A stretch of DNA of 64,000 nucleotides from Parcubacteria group bacterium (GCA_035438705.1 DAORIV010000001.1:43593-107592), one strand, 5' to 3'. Counted from the stretch's first letter, positions 861-44,058 are shown. Notes: a model not told the origin generated them from the sequence alone. A program made the numbers and translations.

Positions 861-1454
861 CTATTTTACTTCCAAGAAATTTTTTTCTATTACACTCCAG
901 TTTAGGTTTGCGAAGAAATCTTCTACATATTGTTTCTTGCCACTTGGTTGGTAGTCTGCGACATATGAATGTTCCCACATATCAAGAGCAAGTATTGGAG
1001 CGCATCCTTGTAGTTGTCCCAAGTGTTGTTCGTCCACCCATGATGTAAGTAGTTTATTTTCTTTTTTATCAAACCAAAGCATTGCCCAGCCAATACCTCT
1101 AATCATCGCGATTGTTTTAAAGTACTTTAGAAAAGTTTCTACTGTTCCATAATTTTCTTCAATAGCTTTTTTCAGTTGTCCATCGGAAAGGGGGGTAGCT
1201 CCACCTGACAAAGACTCAAAATAGATTTCATGATTTCTCATCCCATTGTACTCAAAACTGAATCGTCTAATTAATTCATTCATTACATAAGTATTTTTCT
1301 CAGCATCCTCCGTCCACAATTCAAATAATTTTTGGTTTACTAAATTAGCATTTTTAACATATCCAGAATACAGCTTTAGATGCTCTTCAATATTTTTTGC
1401 CGAAATACCTTTTAACTCCCCAAGATTAAATTTTTTCTCTTCAAATTGTGCCAT
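861..1454 (-). CDS. sodA: Fe/Mn superoxide dismutase
   Basis: DMWEHSYV metal-binding motif and overall SodA/SodB-like sequence; likely true start at MAQFEEKKF (ATG 1452-1454). Confidence 0.85.
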   Translation of the reverse strand: MAQFEEKKFNLGELKGISAKNIEEHLKLYSGYVKNANLVNQKLFELWTEDAEKNTYVMNELIRRFSFEYNGMRNHEIYFESLSGGATPLSDGQLKKAIEENYGTVETFLKYFKTIAMIRGIGWAMLWFDKKENKLLTSWVDEQHLGQLQGCAPILALDMWEHSYVADYQPSGKKQYVEDFFANLNWSVIEKNFLEVK

Positions 1455-1492
1455 GTTTAGTTTTATATTTATTAATATGTATACTATATCAC

Positions 1493-2395
1493 ATGGAGGA
1501 AGTCTCATTTTATAGGAAGTATTTAAAGTGGTATTTTATTTTAGGTCTACTGGTTATAGTAATCCTTCTTTTATATGCAGTATTTTTTAAAAACACTGAG
1601 GGGGTTTTGAAATTCACCATTATGGATGTGGGGCAAGGGGATAGTATATATATCGAGTCTCCAACAGGAGTCCAGATAATTGTAGATGGTGGTCCTGGTA
1701 ATAATCTTTTAAAAGAAATACCAAAAGTTTTGCCATGGTATGACAGAAGTGTGGATATGATTTTTGTGACCAATCCTGATAGTGATCATTATGAAGGGTT
1801 TATTAAGTTTTTAGACAAGTATTCAGTTGGGGGCCTCGTGGAATCCGGAACAACAAATAGTTATAGTGCTTTTGTGGTTTTTCAGGAAAAGATAAAAGAA
1901 AAAGGTATTACAAAAACTCTAGCTCGTAGAGGGCTGACAATAGATATAGGTGGAGGAGCATATATTCAGATACTTTTTCCAGATAGAAATGTTTCTGAGG
2001 TCAGTCCAAACACAGGCTCAATTGTAATGAAGCTTGTATATGGAGACACTTCAGTTTTGCTACAAGGTGATTCTGTTGCAAGTATTGAGCAATACCTATT
2101 AGAAATTGATGGCGATTATTTAAATAGTGATATTTTAAAAGTGGGGCATCATGGTTCCAAGACTAGCAGTGTAAAAGAGTATGTTGAAAAAGTGTCACCA
2201 GACTATGCTGTTATTTCTGCGGGTTCGGATAATAGTTACGGGCATCCACATAAAGAAGTTATCGAGACGTTAAGAGATTTGAACATTAAAATAATAACAA
2301 CATGCAATAATGGTGCTATATATTTTGAATCAGATGGTAAAGATTTTGTTTTAAAAAATAGAAATACAGAAGAGGTTGAAGTGGGTTGCAAATAA
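1493..2395 (+). CDS. ComEC-type metallo-beta-lactamase domain protein with N-terminal TM helix (the ComEC C-terminal module as a separate ORF)
   Basis: FTIMDVGQGDSIYIE ... VGHHGS motifs typical of the ComEC MBL domain; ATG at 1493 within the GTG-initiated ORF 1448. Confidence 0.7.
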   Translation: MEEVSFYRKYLKWYFILGLLVIVILLLYAVFFKNTEGVLKFTIMDVGQGDSIYIESPTGVQIIVDGGPGNNLLKEIPKVLPWYDRSVDMIFVTNPDSDHYEGFIKFLDKYSVGGLVESGTTNSYSAFVVFQEKIKEKGITKTLARRGLTIDIGGGAYIQILFPDRNVSEVSPNTGSIVMKLVYGDTSVLLQGDSVASIEQYLLEIDGDYLNSDILKVGHHGSKTSSVKEYVEKVSPDYAVISAGSDNSYGHPHKEVIETLRDLNIKIITTCNNGAIYFESDGKDFVLKNRNTEEVEVGCK

Positions 2396-2403
2396 TTGAC
2401 TAA

Positions 2404-2655
2404 ATGACAAAAAATGTTATTGTGTGTTTGGAGGGTATTCATTTGGCGTACGAACTCAGGTACAGGGTAGCGGGTGAGAGTGTGATGAGTGGTATCGAGA
2501 AGTTGTCTGGGAGTCACGACTCAGCACTCGCACAAGCAAAACATCTGGCACAGAATCTTGCCTTTTCACCGAACAATCTCTCGGATTTCACTTTCTGTGG
2601 TCCAAACGGAGAAAGGATCCCGATCCAAGTGACCAGAGAAAGAGTTCCAGGGTAA
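2404..2655 (+). CDS. hypothetical 83-aa protein in a conspicuously GC-rich (~50%) segment; could instead be a structured RNA
   Basis: ORF fills the whole GC-rich island, starts 9 nt after the ComEC-MBL stop, ends just before the terminator hairpin. Confidence 0.3.
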   Translation: MTKNVIVCLEGIHLAYELRYRVAGESVMSGIEKLSGSHDSALAQAKHLAQNLAFSPNNLSDFTFCGPNGERIPIQVTRERVPG

Positions 2656-2657
2656 TA

Positions 2658-2697
2658 CAAAACGACCGGTTCCATTAGGACCCGGTCGTTTTTAGTT
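2658..2697. terminator. bidirectional rho-independent terminator (ACGACCGG-loop-CCGGTCGT, A-run before, T-run after)
   Basis: perfect 8-bp stem with flanking A/T runs between convergent genes. Confidence 0.6.
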
Positions 2698-2706
2698 TTG
2701 TATAAA

Positions 2707-2949
2707 CTATACTATTCCTGCTTTATGGAGAGTTGCGTAAGCCCCGTTCTTTTGAATGGTTTTTATTCCTTTTGCAGATAGTGTTAAAGTCACTGACTTT
2801 TTAAGTTCAGGTATGTATATTCTCTTTTTTTGAAGGTTAGGATATCTTCTTCTGATACCAGTTGGGTTAAACTGGGTTGCACGAGTTCTGTTAGAGTATC
2901 CTCCTCCTAATTTAGACGTCTTTCCTGTAATGTCGCATACTTTTGCCAT
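2707..2949 (-). CDS. rpmB: 50S ribosomal protein L28
   Basis: MAKVCDITGK... 80 aa, L28-like. Confidence 0.8.
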   Translation of the reverse strand: MAKVCDITGKTSKLGGGYSNRTRATQFNPTGIRRRYPNLQKKRIYIPELKKSVTLTLSAKGIKTIQKNGAYATLHKAGIV

Positions 2950-2981
2950 AGTGTGGAATATGTTAGCATATTATCTACATA

Positions 2982-3596
2982 ATGCAAATAGATTTCATAT
3001 TCTCAATAGTAATATTAATATTTTCCGTAGTTGTTCATGAGGTGGCTCATGGCTATATGGCGTATATGCTAGGGGACAACACAGCTAAATATGAAGGTAG
3101 ATTAAATCTCAATCCACTGAACCATTTAGAACTTTTTGGTTCATTTTTATTGCCAGTTGCCTCATATTTTCTAGGAGGTTTCATTATCGGTTGGGCAAAA
3201 CCAGTGCCATTTAACCCATATAATCTAAGGGACCAAAAATGGGGTGAAGCTAAGGTTGCAATGGCAGGACCTCTTTCAAATATACTAATAGCTCTATTTT
3301 TCGGATTACTAATACGCTTCGGTATCCTCACTTCACTAGGAGAATCCTTTTTATATATAGGGACAATGATTGTGTTTATTAATCTTGTACTTGCTACATT
3401 TAATTTAATCCCGATACCTCCACTAGATGGCTCGAAAATACTGTTTTCATTTTTACCGTATAGTAAAAACAACATAAGAGACTGGATGGAACAGAATGGT
3501 ATTTTCCTCATGTTGTTTTTTGTATTTTTCTTGTGGAAGTTTATTGTGCCTATTGTTTACTGGGAATTCATACTCATTACCGGTTTGAGTATATAA
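2982..3596 (+). CDS. M50 family (site-2 protease-like) zinc metalloprotease
   Basis: HEVAHG (HExxH) in a TM helix, polytopic membrane protein of 204 aa. Confidence 0.7.
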   Translation: MQIDFIFSIVILIFSVVVHEVAHGYMAYMLGDNTAKYEGRLNLNPLNHLELFGSFLLPVASYFLGGFIIGWAKPVPFNPYNLRDQKWGEAKVAMAGPLSNILIALFFGLLIRFGILTSLGESFLYIGTMIVFINLVLATFNLIPIPPLDGSKILFSFLPYSKNNIRDWMEQNGIFLMLFFVFFLWKFIVPIVYWEFILITGLSI

Positions 3597-3616
3597 ATTG
3601 ATATATAGAAGAACAG

Positions 3617-3645
3617 TTGCATTTTTCTCAAGGATATATTAGAGT
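3617..3645 (+). promoter_or_regulatory. candidate promoter TTGCAT-17-TAGAGT ending 9 nt before the rpsL ATG
   Basis: -35/-10 hexamers with 17-bp spacer. Confidence 0.3.
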
Positions 3646-3654
3646 AACCCGTAC

Positions 3655-4068
3655 ATGTCAACGATAAATCAATTGGTTAGAAGAAGAAGAAAGAATGTTA
3701 AAACAAAGCCGAAGGCCGTGGCTCTTACTCGTGGTTTCAATAACCTTACAAACAGACCTGTATTTTATCCTGCACCTTTTAAAAGAGGTGTGTGTACAAA
3801 GGTGACTACAAAAACTCCAAAGAAACCTAACTCAGCTATTCGAAAGATTGCGAGAGTCAGACTTACAAATGGTATGGAAGTAACAGCATATATTCCTGGA
3901 ATGGGACACAACCTGCAAGAACACTCAGTTGTTCTACTTAGAGGTGGAAAGGTTAAAGACGTTGGCGTTAGATACACTATAGTTAGAGGTATGCTAGATG
4001 CTACAGGAGTAGAGAAGAGAATGAAGGGTCGTTCAAGATACGGTGCAAAGAGACCAAAAGCTAAATAA
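3655..4068 (+). CDS. rpsL: 30S ribosomal protein S12
   Basis: [10 protein letters not shown]..., [29 protein letters not shown] hallmark. Confidence 0.95.
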
Positions 4069-4079
4069 TTTAAAAACAA

Positions 4080-4550
4080 ATGCGAAGAAAAGTTACAAAT
4101 AGAAATATAGTTGGACCAGATAGTAAATACAACTCAGAAAAGGTTGGTAAATTTGTTAATTACATAATGTGGAGAGGTCAAAAAGAAACAGCAAGAGGTA
4201 TTGTTTATGAGGCAATGGATATAGTAAAGGATACTGCCAAAGTAGAGGATCCGATGGAAGTTTTTGATACAGCCTTGAAAAACTCCGGACCACTTACAGA
4301 AGTAAGAAGTAGAAGAGTTGGAGGTGCTAACTACCAAATTCCGAGAGAAGTAAGACCAGAAAGAAGAACTTTCCTTGCTATGAAATGGATTATAGAAGCA
4401 GCAAGAGATGGAAAGGGAGCTCCTATGGCAAAAAGACTAGCTGATGAAATACTACTAGCAGCTAAAAACGAAGGTAAGGCGGTGAAGAAGAGAGAAGATA
4501 CACATAAGATGGCAGAAGCTAACAAAGCTTTCGCACACCTTGCATGGTAA
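4080..4550 (+). CDS. rpsG: 30S ribosomal protein S7
   Basis: S7 family sequence, 156 aa, directly downstream of rpsL. Confidence 0.95.
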   Translation: MRRKVTNRNIVGPDSKYNSEKVGKFVNYIMWRGQKETARGIVYEAMDIVKDTAKVEDPMEVFDTALKNSGPLTEVRSRRVGGANYQIPREVRPERRTFLAMKWIIEAARDGKGAPMAKRLADEILLAAKNEGKAVKKREDTHKMAEANKAFAHLAW

Positions 4551-4552
4551 AA

Positions 4553-4578
4553 GAAAATCCCCTGAAGGGGATTTTTTA
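4553..4578 (+). terminator. rho-independent terminator (AAATCCCC-GAA-GGGGATTTTTT)
   Basis: hairpin plus T-run after rpsG. Confidence 0.6.
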
Positions 4579-4597
4579 TAATGAAACTTTGCAATAA

Positions 4598-4628
4598 AAA
4601 CAAAGGCCTCATGACGAGGCCTTTTGTA
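4598..4628. terminator. bidirectional terminator (AGGCCTC-ATGAC-GAGGCCT flanked by A-run and T-run)
   Basis: hairpin located between rpsG (+) and the 3-prime end of minus-strand ORF 4630..4860. Confidence 0.55.
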
Positions 4629-4629
4629 A

Positions 4630-4860
4630 CTATTGTTCTGGTGGAAATTCGATCTGTTCGACCGGTTTCCATTCAGCGAGTTCACGAGTCAGAACATGAC
4701 CTTTCCTTTCTCCTTCTTTTGCGACAACAGTTATGGTAACTGTCATGCCTCTCGGCGTAAATGTTGCCGAAACAGGGTTGAATAGGATGAGGTTTCTGGT
4801 GACACCACTGTTACGAGCCCCACCAGCACGTCGTACAATTTCGGGGATAGTTGCTTTCAA
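4630..4860 (-). CDS. hypothetical 76-aa protein, antisense insertion in str operon, GC-richer than surroundings
   Basis: only ORF in a 450-bp gap between rpsG and fusA; ends at bidirectional terminator. Confidence 0.4.
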   Translation of the reverse strand: MKATIPEIVRRAGGARNSGVTRNLILFNPVSATFTPRGMTVTITVVAKEGERKGHVLTRELAEWKPVEQIEFPPEQ

Positions 4861-4903
4861 GTTTCCTCCGTCTTTTATGGATTTTTACATATGATAAATT
4901 CAA

Positions 4904-4932
4904 TTGCAATATGGGTGTTTTTAGTATATAGT
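4904..4932 (+). promoter_or_regulatory. candidate promoter TTGCAA-17-TATAGT upstream of fusA
   Basis: hexamers with 17-bp spacer. Confidence 0.4.
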
Positions 4933-4944
4933 TTTCGTTGAATT

Positions 4945-4963
4945 ACCCAATTGGGTTTTTTCT
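4945..4963 (+). promoter_or_regulatory. palindrome ACCCAATTGGGT followed by T-run in fusA leader (attenuator-like)
   Basis: perfect 12-nt palindrome plus TTTTTTCTTT about 40 nt before the fusA ATG. Confidence 0.35.
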
Positions 4964-4998
4964 TTACTTTAGTAAAATTAATAATTATAAATTTATTT

Positions 4999-7140
4999 AT
5001 GAATCGCGATTATACATTAGATAAGGTTAGAAATTTTGGGATCATTGCTCACATTGATGCAGGTAAAACTACTACATCAGAACGTGTACTTTTCTACACA
5101 GGAATGACGCACAAAATTGGTGAAGTGCATGAGGGAGAAACAGTTACTGACTGGATGGAGCAGGAGCGTGAAAGAGGAATTACGATCACGGCCGCTGCTA
5201 TTACTTGTTTCTGGAATCCAACATACATGCCTAAGGGCCAAAGACCTGAGTACCGTTTCAACATTATTGATACTCCAGGTCACATTGATTTTACAGCAGA
5301 AGTAAAGAGATCTCTTCGAGTGCTAGACGGTGCAGTGGTTGTGTTTGACGGAGTTGCTGGGGTAGAACCGCAGTCAGAAACTAACTGGAGATATGCTGAT
5401 GATGGAAATGTTCCAAGAATTTGTTTTATCAATAAACTAGATAGAACAGGAGCATCTTTTGAAAGAAGTTACGCATCTATTTTAGACAGACTTACAAAAA
5501 ATGCTGTAAGAGTTCAAATACCAATTGGACTAGAAGAAAACTTCCAGGGAGTTATTGATCTTTTGAAAATGAAAGCATTCTACTTTGAGGGTAATATGGG
5601 TATGAACATTCGTGAGGAAGAAATTCCAGCAGAATTTCTGGAGGAGGCTAAAAAATATAGAGCTGAACTTGTTGAAAAAATTGTAGAACAAGATGATGCT
5701 TTGATGTCAGCATATCTAGATGGAAAGGAGCCTTCATTTGAGGATATGAAGAAAACTTTAAGAGCAGCTACTCTTAAGGTAAAACTTATTCCTGTTTTCG
5801 CTGGCTCAGCATTGAAAAACAAAGGTGTACAACTTGTACTGGATGGTGTTGTTGATTATCTACCAAGTCCTATTGATGTTCCGCCAGTTCACGGTATTGA
5901 TCCAAAAACAAATGCAGAAATATTTAGAAACTCATCTGATACAGAACCTTTTGCTGCTCTTGCTTTCAAACTTCAAAACGATCCATTCGTAGGACAACTT
6001 ACTTTCTTCAGAGTTTATTCAGGAAGTATAGAAGCTGGTACATACATATATAATGCAACTACAGGAGAGAAAGAAAGACTAGGTCGTATTGTGCGATTGC
6101 AAGCTGACAAACGTGAAGAAGTTAAAAAAGTTTTCGCAGGAGAAATCGCTGCAGCTGTAGGACTAAAGTCTGCGAAAACTTCTCATACACTTTGTGATGA
6201 AAACAATCCTATAATTCTAGATCCAATCAAGTTCGTAGCTCCTGTGGTGTCTCTACGTATTGAACCAAAAACTAAAGCAGACCAAGAAAAAATGGGTATG
6301 GCTTTGAAGAAACTTTCTGATGAAGATCCAACTTTCGTGATCTCTTCAAACACAGATACTGGTGAATCAATTATTTCAGGAATGGGTGAGCTACACCTTG
6401 AAATCATGGTTGATCGTATGAAAAGAGAGTTTGGTGTAGAAGTAAATGTTGGTAAGCCACAAGTTGCATATAGAGAAACTATTCTTGGAGAGGCAGAGGC
6501 TGAACACAAATACATCAAGCAAACTGGAGGTAAGGGTCAATACGGTCACGTTAAACTTACAATTAAGCCAATGCAAGCTATTGAAGAGGGAGAAAAGATT
6601 CCTAAAAATGTTAAAAGATATGAAGATTTTGAATTCATCGATAACATTAAAGGAGGAGTTATCCCACAAGAATTTATTCCAGCTGTTGAAAAGGGAGTGT
6701 ATGAAGCTATGGAAAGAGGAATTGTTGCTGGTTATAAAATGGTAAATATTTCATGTGATCTGACTTTCGGTTCATACCACGATGTGGATTCATCTGAAAT
6801 CGCATACAAAATTGCAGCTTCACAAGCTTTCCAAGAAGCAGCTAAAAAGGCAAGACCAGTTATTCTCGAGCCTATCATGAAAGTTGAAGCTATAATGCCA
6901 GAGCAATTCATGGGAGACGTAACAGGTTCACTTTCAGGTAAAAGAGGACAAATAGAAGGAATGGCAGAGAGAGGAATGCTAAGAGTTATTCATGCAAAAG
7001 TTCCTCTATCTGAAATGTTTGGTTATACAACTGATATTAGATCAATGACACAAGGAAGAGGAAGTGTGCAAATGGAATTTGATCACTATGAAGTGGTACC
7101 ACCTAACGTAGAGAAGCAAATTGTTGAATCAAGAAAATAA
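4999..7140 (+). CDS. fusA: elongation factor G
   Basis: [10 protein letters not shown]-domain, full EF-G architecture; ATG at 4999 ([15 protein letters not shown]) inside the longer predicted ORF. Confidence 0.95.
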
Positions 7141-7146
7141 TTAAAA

Positions 7147-7185
7147 TAAAAATCTCACAAAAAGTGAGATTTTTATTTTTTTTAT
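7147..7185 (+). terminator. rho-independent terminator (ATCTCAC-AAAAA-GTGAGAT + T-run)
   Basis: hairpin plus T-run after fusA. Confidence 0.65.
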
Positions 7186-7218
7186 TAACATCTTATCCAG
7201 ATATTTATATCATTTTGT

Positions 7219-7247
7219 TTGATACTAAAATTCTTAAGATATATAAT
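7219..7247 (+). promoter_or_regulatory. promoter TTGATA-17-TATAAT ending 7 nt before the ATG at 7255 (leaderless arrangement)
   Basis: consensus-like hexamers, 17-bp spacer. Confidence 0.5.
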
Positions 7248-7254
7248 ATGTGTT

Positions 7255-10200
7255 ATGAGTCTCTCTACTTCTGAAGATTATACTCCACATAGTGGTAATG
7301 AAAGAGTGATTGATCTAGATCATCTAGATGATTTGCCATTAAATGTAAAACAAGATGATAAAGATGTTTTGGGTGATTTTGATATCTTACATAAACAACT
7401 AGACCCTGAAGAAAGAAAATCCGCAGTCGTACATGATTTTTCTGCATATAAAAAACCAACAGAAATAATTGAAGGACCAGTTTCAGAATCTATTGACGGT
7501 TTAGATATCGAAGATTTGAGAACTAAAATTAATTCTAATTTAGAAGATAATAATTTTGATGCTGCATACAATATAATTCAAAAAATTGACAGTGAAAGTG
7601 TTTTACATGCTGTTTTAAGTGAAGCTATCACTTTTCTCATAAGAAAAAAAGAATTTTCAGTTGCAAAGAAATTTGTGCGACTTATTCATAACATGGACGT
7701 GTACACGACTGAACTTAATTACATATTGGAGAAAGAGAGGAATACTGACCCACTTTCAGATTTTAAATCTCAAAATGACGAGGTGGTGGTAAATAAAATT
7801 GAAATTAAAAAACCAAAAAAAGAAGTTGAACCGGTTTTTGCAAATACTGAGAAGGGAAGCATTTCGGATATTAATGAACGCACAATTGACGAGACTAACG
7901 AGGAACTTATCTCTGATGAAGATTATGATAATTTTGTTAAAAAAGGTGATGTCTCAGGCGATATACTGGTAAACATAGCTGACAGAATGGCAAGAGGAGA
8001 AAAAACAACTGAAAGAGAGCTGGCTATTTACCAAACCTTTGGCCCAAAAATTGAATTACTTTTGAGGAATAGAAAAGGTGATAAAGAAGCTGTGGTTGAA
8101 GGGGAAACTGTGGAAACAGAAGACTCACATGAGGTTGTTCCTTCAGTACCAGAAGTAAGTAGTAGTATTGAAAACACCGAAAAACTAGAAAAAGATCTTG
8201 AGGATTCTAGAAAAGAATTTGTTGCACAAGAAGCTGTTTGGAGGGCAAAAAACCAACAAAGTAAAAGTTGGTTTAGAAAAAATGTTCTAGGGAATTTAGG
8301 TATGGACAAACAAACTCCTTTAATCCCAGAACAATCAGAGCTTGAAGAAGCCAGAATTGTGTATAATCTCGCAAAGAAAAATAAACTTAGAGAAACTATA
8401 GGTATGGGGGACATCACTGTCTTATTAGAAGAAACAGAAAGAGAAAGAAAGACTCTCGAATCTTTAAAGTCTAGTTATTCACCAAAAGTTATTAAAGAGT
8501 CCCAACTTAATAGAGATATAAGAACTGGTTTTTTGGGACTTAATTCAAAAGAAGAAGATGGGGTTGTGTACGAAGTGGAAAAGGGAGTGTTTGCAGAAAA
8601 GTTTGAATCTATGTCCCAAAAAGCCATGGATAAATGGTCTAAACTTCCTAAGCCAGTTCAGATAGCTACAAGTACAGCACTTGTTACTGGAACAAGCTTT
8701 ACATTTGGTTTAGCTGCAGCAGCAGGCCCTTTGGGTTATGCAGGATATAGAGTTGCAAAAAGTGCACTATTTGGAGGAGTAGTAGCTCAACCACTTGGAA
8801 AATTTGTTGACAATATACACAATAGAAAAAATAAAGCTTCAGAAGAAGAAAGTCTGGAAGAATTTTCAGAGGGGATAAATATAGATAATTTTGAAGAAAA
8901 AGAAGCAGAAAGAATGGCTCGAGATGAAAAGATGGTGGATGAAAAGAAAAAGCAGAGATTTGTAAAGGCAATGACAAAAGTTGCTGCGGGAGGAATAGTA
9001 TCTGCTGGAATGGAAATGAGCGGTGCATCTAGTTTACTTTTTGATAAGGGAGACATAGACCTTCCTGGAAAAGGCACACTAAATGTTCCAAATGATTTCG
9101 GAGATGTAGATAAAAATTTAGATAAATTAGAAAAATTCAGACTAAATGCAAAAGAAGTTTTACCTACAGATGATAAATTAGATAACCTTCAGGAGTTTAA
9201 GCCTGCAGTTTCAAGTAATTTGGATACAACACAAGTAGTAAATGAAGCACCTTCAGACCTAATTATCCAGGATATTCATAATCTAAAGGCACAGATAATG
9301 TCACAGTATGGGGGAGAGGTACCAGATAGTCTAAAGCCAATCATGGAAAAAACTCCAAAAGAATTAATAAAAATATTTGATTTCAATAATCCAGGTAATA
9401 CTGATTTTAAACCTGGTGTAGATACTGAGGATTTAACTATAGATAGTAATGGAAATGTTTATTATGTACACCAAGATGGAAGCAGGCAAACTCTTTTTGA
9501 TTCACAAAAAGGAAAATTTTACCGATTTGATGGCACTGAAGCTGAAAAAACTATTTCTAGTATAGGAACTGATGGTTCAGAGATTTATCCAAATGGTCAG
9601 ATAGGAGATAAAGTTTATTCCAAACTAGATTTTGGAGGAAATAAGATTTTGACACCAGATCCTGTTGTTCAGACTGTTGGAACAGAAGTGCTGGAGGGTG
9701 ATCCAATTTTCAAAACTGAAGCTGTCTCTGTTTTGGATGTGAAAGATACCACCGAAGAAGAAGTAGCAAATAACACAGTTTCTCACACAGAACTTTCACA
9801 GGGTAAATCTGTAGATGTATTCAGAATGGGAGAAGATAAAATTGTTTCATATGATGGGGCAAGAATTGGTCAGGAGGTATTACAAAATGGTAAAAAAACT
9901 CTAGTTCTTGATGATACTTACCAAGACGGTGAACAGTATAGAAGTACAAGAGAAGCTTTTTCAAAAGCATTTGAGGCAAATGCAACAGTGGAAAACGTTG
10001 GTACGAATCCAATAGCAGAATCTTTTGAAGGTGGTAAAATATATATTACATACAACATTCCAAACGATCCTAATTCAGTTAGAGTTTATTTAAATGGTAA
10101 AGAGATAGCAGTTGGAGATACTACAGTCGTTGATAGTAAGGGAATTCCAAAGATAAAAATGCATGGCAATTTAAAAGGGGGTTGGTTTCTTGTCGACAAT

Positions 10201-10269
10201 GCGTACGAGAGGGCTTTCAAGCACATCGATAAGTTGATAAAAGCTGGCACTTTTAATTTTAAGAATTAA
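7255..10269 (+). CDS. large (~1004 aa) highly acidic hypothetical protein with central hydrophobic segment, inserted between fusA and tuf
   Basis: long uninterrupted ORF, D/E-rich, putative TM pair near residues 470-520; no recognisable family. Confidence 0.6.
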   Translation: MSLSTSEDYTPHSGNERVIDLDHLDDLPLNVKQDDKDVLGDFDILHKQLDPEERKSAVVHDFSAYKKPTEIIEGPVSESIDGLDIEDLRTKINSNLEDNNFDAAYNIIQKIDSESVLHAVLSEAITFLIRKKEFSVAKKFVRLIHNMDVYTTELNYILEKERNTDPLSDFKSQNDEVVVNKIEIKKPKKEVEPVFANTEKGSISDINERTIDETNEELISDEDYDNFVKKGDVSGDILVNIADRMARGEKTTERELAIYQTFGPKIELLLRNRKGDKEAVVEGETVETEDSHEVVPSVPEVSSSIENTEKLEKDLEDSRKEFVAQEAVWRAKNQQSKSWFRKNVLGNLGMDKQTPLIPEQSELEEARIVYNLAKKNKLRETIGMGDITVLLEETERERKTLESLKSSYSPKVIKESQLNRDIRTGFLGLNSKEEDGVVYEVEKGVFAEKFESMSQKAMDKWSKLPKPVQIATSTALVTGTSFTFGLAAAAGPLGYAGYRVAKSALFGGVVAQPLGKFVDNIHNRKNKASEEESLEEFSEGINIDNFEEKEAERMARDEKMVDEKKKQRFVKAMTKVAAGGIVSAGMEMSGASSLLFDKGDIDLPGKGTLNVPNDFGDVDKNLDKLEKFRLNAKEVLPTDDKLDNLQEFKPAVSSNLDTTQVVNEAPSDLIIQDIHNLKAQIMSQYGGEVPDSLKPIMEKTPKELIKIFDFNNPGNTDFKPGVDTEDLTIDSNGNVYYVHQDGSRQTLFDSQKGKFYRFDGTEAEKTISSIGTDGSEIYPNGQIGDKVYSKLDFGGNKILTPDPVVQTVGTEVLEGDPIFKTEAVSVLDVKDTTEEEVANNTVSHTELSQGKSVDVFRMGEDKIVSYDGARIGQEVLQNGKKTLVLDDTYQDGEQYRSTREAFSKAFEANATVENVGTNPIAESFEGGKIYITYNIPNDPNSVRVYLNGKEIAVGDTTVVDSKGIPKIKMHGNLKGGWFLVDNAYERAFKHIDKLIKAGTFNFKN

Positions 10270-10272
10270 TAC

Positions 10273-10569
10273 ATGAAAAACATTTTACCAAACGACATAA
10301 TCAAAGAGTGGGGATTGCAATCTTTGCCACAAGAAAAACAACTTGAAATGGTTGAAAGAATAGGGAAGATAATATATCAAGCTCTTATGGTCAGATCATT
10401 AGACATACTTTCTTTAGACGAGCAGGAAGAATTTGACGAGCTGTTAGATCAAGATTCGACTACTCCAGATGATGTTTTGGGTTTTTTACAAAAGAAAATC
10501 AAGAATTTCGACAAGATAGTTTTGGAGGAAAGAAGGAGTCTAAAAAATGATTTATTGATTGAGGTTTGA
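10273..10569 (+). CDS. hypothetical 98-aa acidic protein
   Basis: ORF starting 4 nt after the large protein's stop; likely co-transcribed. Confidence 0.45.
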   Translation: MKNILPNDIIKEWGLQSLPQEKQLEMVERIGKIIYQALMVRSLDILSLDEQEEFDELLDQDSTTPDDVLGFLQKKIKNFDKIVLEERRSLKNDLLIEV

Positions 10570-10572
10570 GGT

Positions 10573-10601
10573 TTGACTATTTCATTATTTTTGTCTAGTA
10601 T
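10573..10601 (+). promoter_or_regulatory. promoter TTGACT-17-TAGTAT for tuf
   Basis: matches the TTGACA-17-TAGTAT element recurring at 15437 and 19316. Confidence 0.5.
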
Positions 10602-10721
10602 AGTAATGCCGTCGGTGTTTTTTTGCATACGGTCCATTTTTAAGTTCCCAAAATTCAGGTTTTCTCGAACACTGAGTTTTTGGAATTTCTCTCTGGTATT
10701 TATATACAGGAGGAAGACAAA

Positions 10722-10742
10722 ATGGCAATTATTAATTATTAA
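10722..10742 (+). other. mini-ORF MAIINY preceded by GGAGG (8-nt spacer) in the tuf leader
   Basis: the only clear SD-like motif seen in the window; 6-codon ORF ending 16 nt before the tuf ATG. Confidence 0.2.
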
Positions 10743-10758
10743 TTAATTTATAAATATT

Positions 10759-11955
10759 ATGGCAGATTTTGATAGATCAAAACCTCACATAAACGTGGGA
10801 ACAATTGGTCACGTTGACCATGGAAAGACAACATTAACAGCAGCTATCCTAAACACATTGGGTAGACAAGGAGCAGGCTACAGCGCAAAAGTTGTAGGTA
10901 TCGATGGTATCGATAAAGCTCCTGAAGAAAAAGCAAGAGGAATCACTATTGCTCTTTCTCACAACGAGTATGAGACACCTACAAGACACTATGCTCACGT
11001 AGATGCTCCAGGACACGCCGACTACATCAAGAACATGATTACTGGTGCCGCTCAAATGGATGGTGCCATCCTAGTGGTTGCTGCAACTGATGGAGTTATG
11101 CCACAAACAAGAGAACACGTTCTTTTGGCAAAACAAGTTGGAGTACCAAAACTTATCGTATTCCTAAACAAATGCGACATGGTACCTGATAAGGAGCTTA
11201 TTGATCTAGTTGAAGAGGAAGTTCGAGAGTTGCTTACAAAACAAGGTTTCGACGGAGCAGGAGCTCCAGTTATCAGAGGTTCAGGACTAAAAGCTCTTGA
11301 GTCAGCTAATAATGATGATGAATGGGCAAAGAAGGTTCTAGAGCTTGCAAACGCACTAGATACATACTTCCCAGTTCCAGAAAGAGATCTTGATAAACCA
11401 TTCCTAATGCCAGTTGAAGACATCTTCTCAATTGAAGGAAGAGGAACAGTGGTAACAGGAAGAATTGAAAGAGGAATTGTTAAGGTTGGAGAGGAAATTG
11501 AATGTGTTGGTCTACACGAGACACAAAAATACACAGTTACTGGTATTGAAATGTTCAATAAATCTCTACAACAAGGACAAGCTGGAGATAACGCAGGTAT
11601 CCTACTTAGAGGTGCTTCAAAGGATGGTGTTCACAGAGGACAAGTTCTTGCTAAGCCAAAATCTGTAACTCCTCACACAGAATTTACAGCTGAGGTGTAC
11701 ATCCTAAAGAAAGAGGAAGGAGGAAGACACACTCCATTCTTCTCTGGATACAAACCACAATTCTACATCAGAACAACAGACGTTACAGGAGATGTGACTC
11801 TAAATGAAGGAGTAGAAATGGTTATGCCAGGAGACCAAGTAACTTTCAAAGTTAAACTTGTTGCCCCAGTAGCTCTAGAAGACAACACTAAGTTTGCTAT
11901 TAGAGAGGGAGGTAAGACTGTGGGAGCGGGAGTTGTAACTAAAATTATAGCCTAA
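10759..11955 (+). CDS. tuf: elongation factor Tu
   Basis: [22 protein letters not shown] motifs; 398 aa. Confidence 0.97.
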
Positions 11956-11997
11956 GCCACAGCGTTTCCAAATTTGGTCAATCTCATTGGCTAATAT

Positions 11998-12025
11998 CAA
12001 AAAACCACCATGAGGTGGTTTTTTG
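11998..12025 (+). terminator. rho-independent terminator AAAACCACC-ATGA-GGTGGTTTTTT
   Basis: hairpin plus T-run after tuf. Confidence 0.65.
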
Positions 12026-12044
12026 ATATTTATAATAAAAACAC

Positions 12045-12073
12045 TTGAAATAAAAACACATATCTGTTAGTAT
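12045..12073 (+). promoter_or_regulatory. promoter TTGAAA-17-TAGTAT upstream of rpsJ
   Basis: hexamers with 17-bp spacer. Confidence 0.4.
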
Positions 12074-12095
12074 TCTGAAATCAACAAATTGACAT

Positions 12096-12473
12096 ATGGC
12101 AACTAAAGAAACAACAAAAAAAGCACCTGCAAAGAAAGCTGTAAAAGCTAAATCTAACCCAGATGTTATTTCAAAACTTAGAATACGTGTAAGAGCTTAT
12201 GAATATAAGATTCTAGATGTTTCTGTAAGACAAATCATAGATACAGCTCTTAGATATGATGCTAAAGTAGAGGGTCCTATACCACTTCCTACTGAAGTTA
12301 AGAAATACACTGTAAACCGATCATCATTCGTTTACAAAAACGCTAGAGAGCAGTTTGAGATGCGAGTTCACAAGAGAGTTATCGACATACTAAACCCAAC
12401 TCCAAAGATTATGGAGGCACTGACAAACTTGTCGCTACCTTCAGGAGTAAACATCGACGTAAAGATAATCTAA
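12096..12473 (+). CDS. rpsJ: 30S ribosomal protein S10 with N-terminal K/A-rich extension
   Basis: S10/NusE core (RIRVRAYEYKILD...). Confidence 0.9.
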   Translation: MATKETTKKAPAKKAVKAKSNPDVISKLRIRVRAYEYKILDVSVRQIIDTALRYDAKVEGPIPLPTEVKKYTVNRSSFVYKNAREQFEMRVHKRVIDILNPTPKIMEALTNLSLPSGVNIDVKII

Positions 12474-12476
12474 ACT

Positions 12477-12500
12477 AAAAACCACCGGTAGGTGGTTTTT
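12477..12500 (+). terminator. terminator AAAACCACC-GGTA-GGTGGTTTTT
   Basis: hairpin plus T-run after rpsJ. Confidence 0.6.
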
Positions 12501-12523
12501 AGTTTTGTTTATGATAATGTGAT

Positions 12524-12763
12524 TTGGGGTTATTAATAGTGCACAAACTTATAATTGGGAGTTTTACCAAGCGAGAAATTGGCGAGGTATATACATCTCT
12601 AACTGATCACAGAAGAATTCTTCACAAAGGTCAGAGGTTTAAAGTTGTAGGTATAAGTAATCTAGAAGATTGGATTGCTTGCATGAAAGCTTTGGGCAGT
12701 GAGCCTTACTGGGAAGAGATTGCTATACCTTGTGATTTTTACTACGAAATTGAAACGGACTGA
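12524..12763 (+). CDS. hypothetical ~75-aa protein between rpsJ and rplC (start uncertain, TTG/GTG)
   Basis: ORF with its own downstream hairpin AACGGAC...GTCCGTT + T-run (12754-12790). Confidence 0.3.
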   Translation: MGLLIVHKLIIGSFTKREIGEVYTSLTDHRRILHKGQRFKVVGISNLEDWIACMKALGSEPYWEEIAIPCDFYYEIETD

Positions 12764-12794
12764 CAGGTGTTGTCGGTCCGTTTTCTTTTAGGAC

Positions 12795-12823
12795 TTGATA
12801 TTAAATTCACTTTCTGCTAATGT
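12795..12823 (+). promoter_or_regulatory. promoter TTGATA-17-TAATGT upstream of rplC (followed by ~105-nt leader)
   Basis: hexamers with 17-bp spacer. Confidence 0.4.
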
Positions 12824-12933
12824 ATGCAAATCGCCTTTTGGGGCTAGTTTTGAAGGAGACTATCGATGGGCAATGTTGAGGAAAATCTTTCCTCGTTACT
12901 GTCCGAAAAATGTCTCCAAATTAAATAAATAAT

Positions 12934-13542
12934 ATGAAATTTTTATTGGGTACAAAAGTAAATATGACACAAATCTTCGATGAGAAGGGTATTGTGCATC
13001 CTGCAACTGTTATAAAAACAGGTCCTATGACTGTTACTCAAGTAAAGACAGTTGAAACTGATGGATACAATGCTGTCCAAGTAGGTTTTGGTGTAAGAAA
13101 TGCAAAGAATATAAACAAAGCTCTTAAGGGTCATATGAAGGAAGGAAATTTTGCAAACTTAGTAGAATTCAGATTGGATGATGTTTCTGGATTTAAAGTT
13201 GGAGATGTTTTACCACTGTCATTTGTTGCAGGAGATGTAGTTACAACTTCAAGTATTTCAAAAGGAAAAGGATTCCAAGGAGGTGTTAAGAGACACGGTT
13301 TCAAAGGAGGTCCAAGATCTCACGGTCAAAAGCACTCAGAGAGAGAACCAGGTTCACTTGGAGGAGGAGGAAGAGATGGAGGAAGAGTTGCTAAGGGAAA
13401 GAGAATGGCAGGAAGAATGGGTGGGGATGTTATTACCTCAAAAGGTCTTACAATAGTTTCTGTGAATGCAGATACAAATGAAGTATTTGTTAGAGGTGCA
13501 GTGGCTGGTAGAAAAGGAACTCTTGTAGAGATTCTAGGTTAG
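12934..13542 (+). CDS. rplC: 50S ribosomal protein L3
   Basis: L3 family, 202 aa. Confidence 0.93.
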   Translation: MKFLLGTKVNMTQIFDEKGIVHPATVIKTGPMTVTQVKTVETDGYNAVQVGFGVRNAKNINKALKGHMKEGNFANLVEFRLDDVSGFKVGDVLPLSFVAGDVVTTSSISKGKGFQGGVKRHGFKGGPRSHGQKHSEREPGSLGGGGRDGGRVAKGKRMAGRMGGDVITSKGLTIVSVNADTNEVFVRGAVAGRKGTLVEILG

Positions 13543-43137: not shown

Positions 43138-43230
43138 TGGCGGAGCCGGATGGATTCGAACCATCGGTACCTTATTAAAGGGTACACCTCTTTAGCAAAG
43201 AGGCACGTTAGACCACTCTGACACGGCTCC
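43138..43230 (-). tRNA. tRNA-Ser (anticodon GCU), class II with long variable arm, CCA encoded
   Basis: GGAGCCG acceptor, anticodon loop TTGCTAA, T-arm GATGGTTCGAATCCATC, 3-prime CGGCTCCGCCA. Confidence 0.85.
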
Positions 43231-43968: not shown

Positions 43969-44055
43969 GGATAGGTGGATGAGTGGTTTAAATCAACGGT
44001 TTACTAAACCGTCGTAGGGTAAAACCTACCGAGAGTTCGAATCTCTCCCTATCCG
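43969..44055 (+). tRNA. class II tRNA (Ser-like, long variable arm) with anticodon loop UUACUAA, apparent anticodon ACU
   Basis: acceptor GGATAGG/CCTATCC, D-stem GAT/ATC, anticodon stem ACGGT/ACCGT, variable arm GTAGG..CCTAC, T-arm GAGAGTTCGAATCTCTC, discriminator G. Confidence 0.6.
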
Positions 44056-44058
44056 CAT

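Follow-up and report, generated by a model that had tools for sequence, protein, structure and literature searches.

Small acidic chaperones or adaptors encoded beside a large partner are exemplified by the class I chaperones of type III secretion and by IcmS/IcmW of the Dot/Icm system. Here, we describe a gene pair of comparable layout from a Parcubacteria group bacterium (GCA_035438705.1), found in a contiguous stretch of 64,000 nucleotides (DAORIV010000001.1:43593-107592), henceforth the window. The host is a Parcubacteria/Paceibacterota metagenome-assembled genome of the Candidate Phyla Radiation (CPR), and the window carries its str/S10 ribosomal cluster in the order M50 peptidase, rpsL, rpsG, fusA, large open reading frame (ORF), small ORF, tuf, rpsJ, rplC and onward. 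The large ORF (7255-10269; the unit and the signals that flank it lie on the plus strand) encodes an acidic protein of 1004 amino acids (aa) with a central region of predicted membrane association, which falls into an unnamed CPR family, and the small ORF (10273-10569) encodes an acidic four-helix protein of 98 aa assigned to DUF5663 (PF18908), an uncharacterised Pfam family of ~85-100 aa. Our analysis shows that the two make up an operon, restricted to CPR and vertically inherited; a terminator and a conserved leaderless-type promoter, as recognised from their sequences, isolate this 3.3-kb unit from fusA. Hypothetical membrane-protein families enriched in CPR or Parcubacteria have already been described (Meheust et al. 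2019, PMC6744442), and the large family resembles these in being lineage-restricted, unannotated, endowed with predicted membrane segments and widely kept in its clade. DUF5663/PF18908 is absent from the supplements of that study, the large family was not matched to any family identifier there, and in the literature searched we found no mention of DUF5663, hence none of its linkage to a large upstream gene.

It is this linkage that stands out when related genomes are compared. A long ORF ends between -10 and +157 nt from the DUF5663 start in 33 of the 34 distinct DUF5663 loci, with a gap of 11 nt or less in about two thirds; the single exception is found on a contig of 1.5 kb that does not extend far enough upstream. 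Seven distinct contigs, found through either protein, repeat the order seen in the window, i.e. fusA, an ORF of 634-1111 aa without Pfam match, DUF5663 and tuf. For L001, L002/3, L005, L007, L008/9 and L010, which have this order, the length of the ORF without Pfam match ranges over 417-1438 aa. Scanning the GTDB species representatives with a DUF5663 alignment yielded 28 loci, labelled Zambryskibacteria, Paceibacterota or Parcubacteria along with some Third Party Annotation assemblies that are labelled otherwise; tblastn placed EF-G upstream and/or EF-Tu downstream at 26 of these 28, where the contig reached far enough, and at loci whose large protein escaped tblastn, its place was still taken by an ORF of 417-1276 aa or by a split ORF. 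Three pairs lie outside the fusA-tuf context, each with a large ORF directly upstream of DUF5663: one adjoins thioredoxin reductase and a CCA-adding-type enzyme (L038), one has an M23/LysM protein on one side and a UvrD-like helicase on the other (L039) and one is found downstream of a Ser/Thr kinase (L044). By hhalign, the large ORFs of L038 (96.6% probability, E = 6e-10) and L039 (98.7% probability, E = 4e-16) belong to the same family as that of the window. No fusion between large protein and DUF5663 was seen in a Rosetta-stone search of the 244 retrieved proteins. Hence the co-occurrence that a preliminary description of this DNA had proposed to look for in related genomes is borne out and, judged by gene order, the pair behaves as an obligate module that stays together inside and outside the fusA-tuf context. 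As a side observation, another large (805 aa) and small (101 aa) ORF pair lies directly upstream of the L038 pair (950-3689), and the C-terminal ends of its two ORFs are alike (…IRRVIRAALKKIRVDKKDD… and …IVRSAIKKIRSDKKND…).

Because the L038, L039 and L044 pairs lie elsewhere, gene-gene linkage rather than a translation-factor neighbourhood is the conserved feature. This bears on the importance that the preliminary description had attached to a location within the translation-factor locus, and which it loses in the light of these three pairs and of other str/S10 slots that hold unrelated small ORFs and HicAB modules, too. In the clade, such assorted small ORFs and HicAB modules occupy the slots between rpsG and fusA, tuf and rpsJ, rpsJ and rplC, and rplB and rpsS; its str/S10 cluster is fragmented into several transcription units and tolerates insertions. 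We infer that the pair sits between fusA and tuf through inherited synteny of this clade, in a cluster that tolerates insertions, and not through a functional tie to translation. Median identity to the window proteins across loci is 89% for EF-G, 91% for EF-Tu, 88% for S10, 62% for DUF5663 and 31% for the large protein, and by these comparisons both genes diverge along with their hosts; GC content of the pair, overall and at third codon positions (GC3), matches the rest of the window.

The small protein (pI 4.49, net charge -8.5) is identical to an NCBI 'DUF5663 domain-containing protein'. For it, 89 homologues are listed (54-100% identity), nearly all of which have a precomputed PF18908 match; the precomputed table (PF18908.7) lists the identical protein (P0009) and most of the 89. 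Against the PF18908 hidden Markov model the window protein itself scores 18.1 bits (E = 0.0041), under the gathering score of 23.7 in the Pfam copy used, and aligns with its residues 10-91 to model positions 2-81 of 84. Small ORFs from L038 and L039, which were found with the small-protein alignment of the window clade (tblastn E = 2e-17 and 1e-14), score 27.2 and 28.9 bits, i.e. above gathering score, and share with the window protein invariant R29, I30, G31, Y35 and Q36, among other positions (ERIGxxxYQA core). Having ERIGxxxYQA, EFxxLL and FLxxKIxxF in common with members that pass the gathering score, the window protein is, on sequence grounds, a DUF5663 member, albeit one whose own score is sub-threshold and to which membership lends no mechanism. 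Its AlphaFold2 (AF2) model comprises four main helices (predicted local distance difference test, pLDDT, 91.5; predicted TM-score 0.81), and neither a hydrophobic segment nor a signal peptide was found in it, so that, going by the model, the protein conforms to the small (~85-105 aa), all-helical and soluble type typical of DUF5663. We found no informative structural relative; the L038 homologue gave a weak IcmW match (E = 0.011). When both proteins of the pair were run against Pfam, NCBIfam, PADLOC and PHROG, the weak match of the small one to DUF5663 was the sole family hit.

The large protein (pI 4.84, net charge about -52, no Cys) is 100% identical to 'hypothetical protein PLZ99_00265' of Parcubacteria group bacterium at NCBI and has no match in Pfam, NCBIfam, PADLOC or PHROG. 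A word-index search found eight relatives, and an exhaustive profile search returned 335 cluster representatives at E <= 1e-3, of which 175 also pass <= 1e-10 and 102 pass <= 1e-30, with members that are mostly 800-1300 aa long. By these searches it belongs to a sizeable, unnamed CPR family of at least 175 sequence clusters. So the preliminary view that the pair has no recognisable family holds for the large protein in that no Pfam model covers it, yet fails in that it does have a family, and does not hold for the small one, which is DUF5663. With homologues of the large ORF in 335 cluster representatives and 89 listed ones of the small ORF, both sit in real families and neither, judged by these matches, is a chance reading frame.

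Conservation along the large protein was profiled over an alignment of 69 members. All core blocks, namely a basic coiled coil, a Gly-rich hydrophobic segment, YxGYRxxR, an NFEEKE...KKRQ helix, a second hydrophobic segment and domains A and B, are found in the window protein as well as in at least 50% of the 69. The first ~300 residues are variable, acidic and partly disordered, and include a putative helical-repeat domain of the TPR/PPR-like alpha-solenoid type (residues 81-165; 7495-7749). Scaffolds of that type, such as TON_1535 (PDB 3zpj), provided the best hit (E = 0.0017) of PDB sequence and profile searches with three alignments, none of which was significant, and they differ from our protein in that the repeat spans only ~85 of 1004 residues and no Pfam TPR model matches it. 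P0002, a 98%-identical strain variant of 1328 aa, carries an extra beta-rich segment of ~324 aa without Pfam match after residue ~272, and because of this insert the variable N-terminal region appears to accept whole domains. When 54 further members were run against Pfam, isolated matches were all that emerged (one Pep_deformylase, two DnaJ, one TPR_19, one DUF6353).

Past the variable region, residues 305-380 (8167-8394) form basic, coiled-coil-like helices (predicted at 308-345 and 361-382) with the motif L..AR..YA.....WKNK.R.KK..F.K...DLG..K..PE...P.EL..AE..Y..AKK.K in the 69-sequence profile. Towards the C-terminus follow domain A (residues 663-762; 9241-9540), predicted as alpha plus beta-hairpin at a pLDDT of ~70-83, and domain B (residues 841-1000; 9775-10254), which is beta-rich. 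Domain A, with the motif VELSSKGFI...LK...Y...VP...LAK.FGFYDP...G.KGE.L..D..GN..Y.H..G, is conserved family-wide and also in the out-of-context L039 protein. Domain B (FQDG...FEGGKI...VLLNGKEIA.G...LK.GWF..D.VYERAFK) is the best conserved part of the protein, with column identities of 80-90% at LLNGKEIA and YERAFK over the 69 members; its model is of low to moderate confidence and no fold match was found for it. Short proteins that match domain B alone look like fragments and were not taken for secreted stand-alone domains. In the full-length AF2 model, confident islands comprise the helical repeat (81-165), residues 235-270, helices and beta hairpins at 668-760 and beta strands at 841-905, and strands at 726-764 and 841-969 are predicted with low to moderate confidence, in keeping with the beta-rich C-terminal region that had been noted before. 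Foldseek with the full-length model found no PDB match at E <= 0.001.

The central pair of hydrophobic segments, also seen in the preliminary description, is present, too, its members being of unequal quality. Segment 1 (residues 468-496; 8656-8742), rich in Gly, Ala, Ser and Thr and followed by the conserved YxGYRxxR turn, occurs in all 69 aligned members with hydropathy peaks of up to 2.3, and its crude Hessa-scale minimum (median +2.4 kcal/mol) is like that of the weaker helices in the window's M50 peptidase and SecY-like protein. Hence, segment 1 is plausible as a membrane span. Segment 2 (residues 573-596; 8971-9042) follows ~100 residues later in most members, separated from segment 1 by a conserved charged helix (NFEEKE...KKRQ.L.KA, residues 520-572; 8812-8970). 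With a median crude Hessa sum of +5.9 kcal/mol it falls between real transmembrane (TM) helices (<=4) and what EF-G and EF-Tu reach in their most hydrophobic stretches (>=8.3) and would be marginal as a TM helix. Lys/Arg counts average 5.5 in the 15 residues before segment 2 and 1.7 per 20 residues after it, which suggests a cytoplasmic location for the N-terminal flank, the turn and the charged helix but not for the stretch past segment 2, and so a C-terminus that would lie outside. No member of the family has an N-terminal signal peptide.

How the unit is expressed can be predicted from signals at both of its ends. fusA, which probably starts at ATG 4999 rather than TTG 4951, ends at 7140 and is followed by an intrinsic terminator (7143-7187), detected by terminator scan as a 16-bp hairpin (7143-7179) plus U-run that folds at -18.3 kcal/mol (z = -8.46 against shuffles). 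Next comes the sigma-70-type promoter TTGATA-17-TATAAT (7219-7247), with its -35 box at 7219-7224 and its -10 box at 7242-7247, which matches 11 of 12 positions, is the best promoter-like site within the 9.5 kb from 3500 to 13000 and ends 7 nt 5' of ATG 7255. Equivalents of both elements recur in L001, L002, L005, L007, L008 and L010, where a hairpin and T-run 3' of fusA precede a -35/-10 pair whose -10 box ends 6-9 nt 5' of the ATG. Of 27 distinct related loci, 18 show a strict pattern (TTGnnn, 16-18 nt, TAnnnT, 4-11 nt, ATG/start of the long ORF), for the most part with a gap of 6 nt. Since the start-proximal M(S/N)xSTSE is conserved among close relatives, ATG 7255 is favoured over an upstream TTG at 7219. 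The large ORF has no Shine-Dalgarno sequence, nor do most genes in the window.

Leaderless genes have a published signature, a TANNNT box ~12 nt ahead of the start codon (Zheng et al. 2011, PMC3160421). The large ORF shows just this, with a TANNNT that starts 12-13 nt before the ATG, no Shine-Dalgarno and a layout kept in relatives, and its mRNA is predicted to be leaderless, beginning at or next to the ATG. It differs from the surveyed genes in that CPR genomes lie outside that survey and that the transcription start in the window is a prediction from sequence. The same geometry (TTGnnn, 16-17 nt, TAnnnT, 9-10 nt, ATG) is found ahead of rpsL (3655) and rpmB (2949, minus strand) and, together with the general lack of Shine-Dalgarno sequences, argues that such a layout is this genome's normal way to start a transcription unit, not a peculiarity of our gene. 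Throughout the host genome, units may even have a leaderless first gene as a rule; a literature search combining "Parcubacteria" with "leaderless" found no paper. With these data, the preliminary description of a lineage-specific gene pair that has its own leaderless-type promoter and is insulated from fusA stands.

Within the unit, the small ORF starts 3 nt past the TAA stop of the large one and, given this gap, is probably translationally coupled to it. Its downstream boundary is set by the promoter of tuf, TTGACT-17-TAGTAT (10573-10601), which had been reported before as well; it starts 4 nt past the DUF5663 stop, is invariant in its core across seven loci of relatives and serves tuf (10759-11955), the gene directly downstream of the unit's 3' boundary. 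We found no strong terminator between the small ORF and the tuf promoter, and the hairpin behind that promoter is weak (z = -1.45), which would allow transcripts of the pair to run on into the tuf leader.

This leader merits a remark in its own right. It is ~155 nt long (within 10573-10758), conserved and structured, with the weak hairpin and a U-run (10608-10641) behind the promoter, then a conserved 16-bp stem-loop (10642-10688) with an invariant CTCGAAC loop and one compensatory and several wobble changes over six loci. Further down lies a mini-ORF (10722-10742; MAIINY*). Six of seven loci keep its start 'CAAAATGGCA', a mimic of the tuf start ATGGCAG, and the copy in the window has AGGAGG (10708-10713) ahead of it, whereas tuf has no Shine-Dalgarno. 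The element could be an uncharacterised regulatory leader or a leader peptide for EF-Tu, and a scan of 4400-13000 against Rfam, tuf leader included, gave no match.

Taken as a whole, we favour, with fair though by no means full confidence, a vertically inherited, membrane-anchored scaffold that works with a cytosolic adaptor or chaperone-like partner. Large and small proteins would be made in coupled amounts and form a complex, in which the small acidic protein may bind the basic juxtamembrane helices of the large one, or its C-terminal domain if that is cytoplasmic, and act as its adaptor or chaperone-like partner in the cytosol. The large protein, in turn, might serve as an anchored scaffold in envelope or cell-organisation biology. 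We count in favour of this the charge contrast between the small protein and the K/R-rich conserved helices of the large one. The adaptor or chaperone step is drawn by analogy, not by homology, from the type III class I chaperones and IcmS/IcmW, which our unit resembles in that a ~100-aa acidic helical protein adjoins, and is apparently co-translated with, a large protein with basic helices, and in that, of the two partners, the small one is the more conserved. Three points weigh against the reading as a whole. Segment 2 is only marginally hydrophobic, and two conserved Arg/Lys in the turn after segment 1 blur the topology. Also, the AF2 model of the whole protein is of poor quality (mean pLDDT 44.7, from a 5-sequence alignment), which is why our domain picture rests mainly on conservation. 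Finally, the fusA-tuf position is kept across many genomes, something that neutral synteny explains without proving it.

Among the alternatives, a surface or host-interaction role fares best, although to our minds it is unlikely. It has the large protein span the membrane and expose a beta-rich C-terminal part of ~400 aa that touches envelope, host or environment, with DUF5663 handling the cytoplasmic side. The Lys/Arg contrast across segment 2 fits an in-to-out span of this kind, the C-terminal region is indeed predicted to be beta-rich and, among CPR-enriched families, predictions of a membrane or extracellular location are common (PMC6744442). However, the large protein is most conserved in its domain B, unlike a typical fast-evolving host-contact surface, and segment 2, on which exposure would hinge, is marginal at its median of +5.9 kcal/mol. 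Nor does the large protein carry a signal peptide, Cys residues or any recognisable adhesin, cell-wall-anchor or S-layer domain, and no structural match was found for it.

Rather improbable is a link to translation, whereby the pair would lie between fusA and tuf for working with ribosomes or elongation factors, for instance as a membrane tether or a co-translational chaperone platform. Placement between fusA and tuf is kept in at least 25 genomes, and two members bring in modules that could point this way: P0159 (L041 1492-5577) has an N-terminal J-like domain (DnaJ E = 7e-8) and P0191 (L040 2420-6193) a complete C-terminal peptide deformylase. One might add that a profile of the charged helix plus segment 2 weakly matches TMCO1 (6w6l) of the Oxa1 superfamily (E = 0.06). 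However, terminator and own promoter uncouple the pair from fusA, tuf has a promoter of its own and pairs are also found away from any translation gene. The J-like domain of P0159 has HSD in place of HPD and is one of two DnaJ matches among the 54 members scanned, while in P0191 the deformylase stands in for the C-terminal domains and retains a Met of its own, and no DUF5663 ORF is called downstream. The TMCO1 match is non-significant and none of the 54 matches the Oxa1, EMC3 or YidC Pfam models. Moreover, DUF5663 (62%) is clearly less conserved than EF-G, EF-Tu and S10 (88-91%) across the same genomes. A bolder version, in which the pair is a CPR-specific membrane-anchored machine that serves translation or protein biogenesis, e.g. 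by docking ribosomes, elongation factors or nascent chains, strikes us as a long shot; if true, it would explain the clade-wide fusA-tuf placement and the rare J-like and deformylase modules.

Some more specific identities were tried and rejected. For an Oxa1/YidC/TMCO1/EMC3 insertase, the TMCO1 hit was dismissed as a match of charged-coil and Gly-rich composition, and a three-TM insertase core with a cytosolic coiled coil between TM1 and TM2 does not agree with our two hydrophobic segments, of which one is clear and the other marginal. DnaJ has no match in the window protein and the stronger of the two DnaJ-matching members (P0159) lacks HPD, which speaks against a J-domain co-chaperone. As for P0191, we read it not as a true deformylase fusion but as a probable deletion or read-through, given the retained Met and the replaced C-terminal domains.

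Very hard to credit, in our view, is a selfish or accessory insertion, be it mobile, toxin-antitoxin-like or anti-phage, in a permissive intergenic slot: neighbouring slots of the cluster in relatives do hold HicAB modules and unrelated small ORFs and the unit does have its own promoter, but neither protein has a PADLOC match or anything beyond PHROG noise (E >= 0.33), 2.9 million viral contigs hold no relative of the pair, no integrase is among the genes called at the fusA-tuf loci of relatives (flanking repeats lay outside this search), GC and GC3 are host-typical, and the pair keeps the same site across the whole clade with a divergence that scales with EF-G, EF-Tu and S10. A sigma/anti-sigma pair was rejected, as the combination of sigma-70 region 2 or 4 in the small protein with an anti-sigma domain in the large one was not found.

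Other slots of the cluster contain further elements. The 448-bp spacer between rpsG and fusA (4551-4998) has a terminator after rpsG, a bidirectional GC-rich hairpin (4602-4624) and a minus-strand ORF of 76 aa (4630-4860) without Pfam match; relatives use this slot for a conserved membrane peptide of 64-66 aa (METFWDLLKDPAHWEFE...) or a HicAB toxin-antitoxin pair. Between rpsJ and rplC (12472-12763), a strong 15-bp hairpin right behind rpsJ is followed by a 79-aa ORF (12524-12763) without family match, and the same slot in relatives houses unrelated ORFs (proteins of 128-130 aa, an M90-like peptidase, HicA). Elsewhere in the window, ARAGORN calls a tRNA-Ser with anticodon ACT, i.e. with A at position 34 (43969-44056), near a normal tRNA-Ser(GCT) (43138-43230); an unmodified A34 in tRNA-Ser would be unusual in bacteria.

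In conclusion, the pair is real and conserved, but an ordinary kind of finding for CPR genomes. What is new is that DUF5663, an orphan Pfam family, is tied to an obligate and far larger unnamed partner family of at least 175 clusters, that the conserved blocks of this partner family are defined and that the unit comes with a conserved leaderless-type promoter cassette. The position between EF-G and EF-Tu genes carries little functional information and is no evidence of a translation role. For experimenters, the outcome is a concrete two-protein target. Should the two proteins assemble into a complex at the membrane, the pair would count among the lineage-defining components of Parcubacteria, whose genomes are tiny and yet devote 3.3 kb to it.

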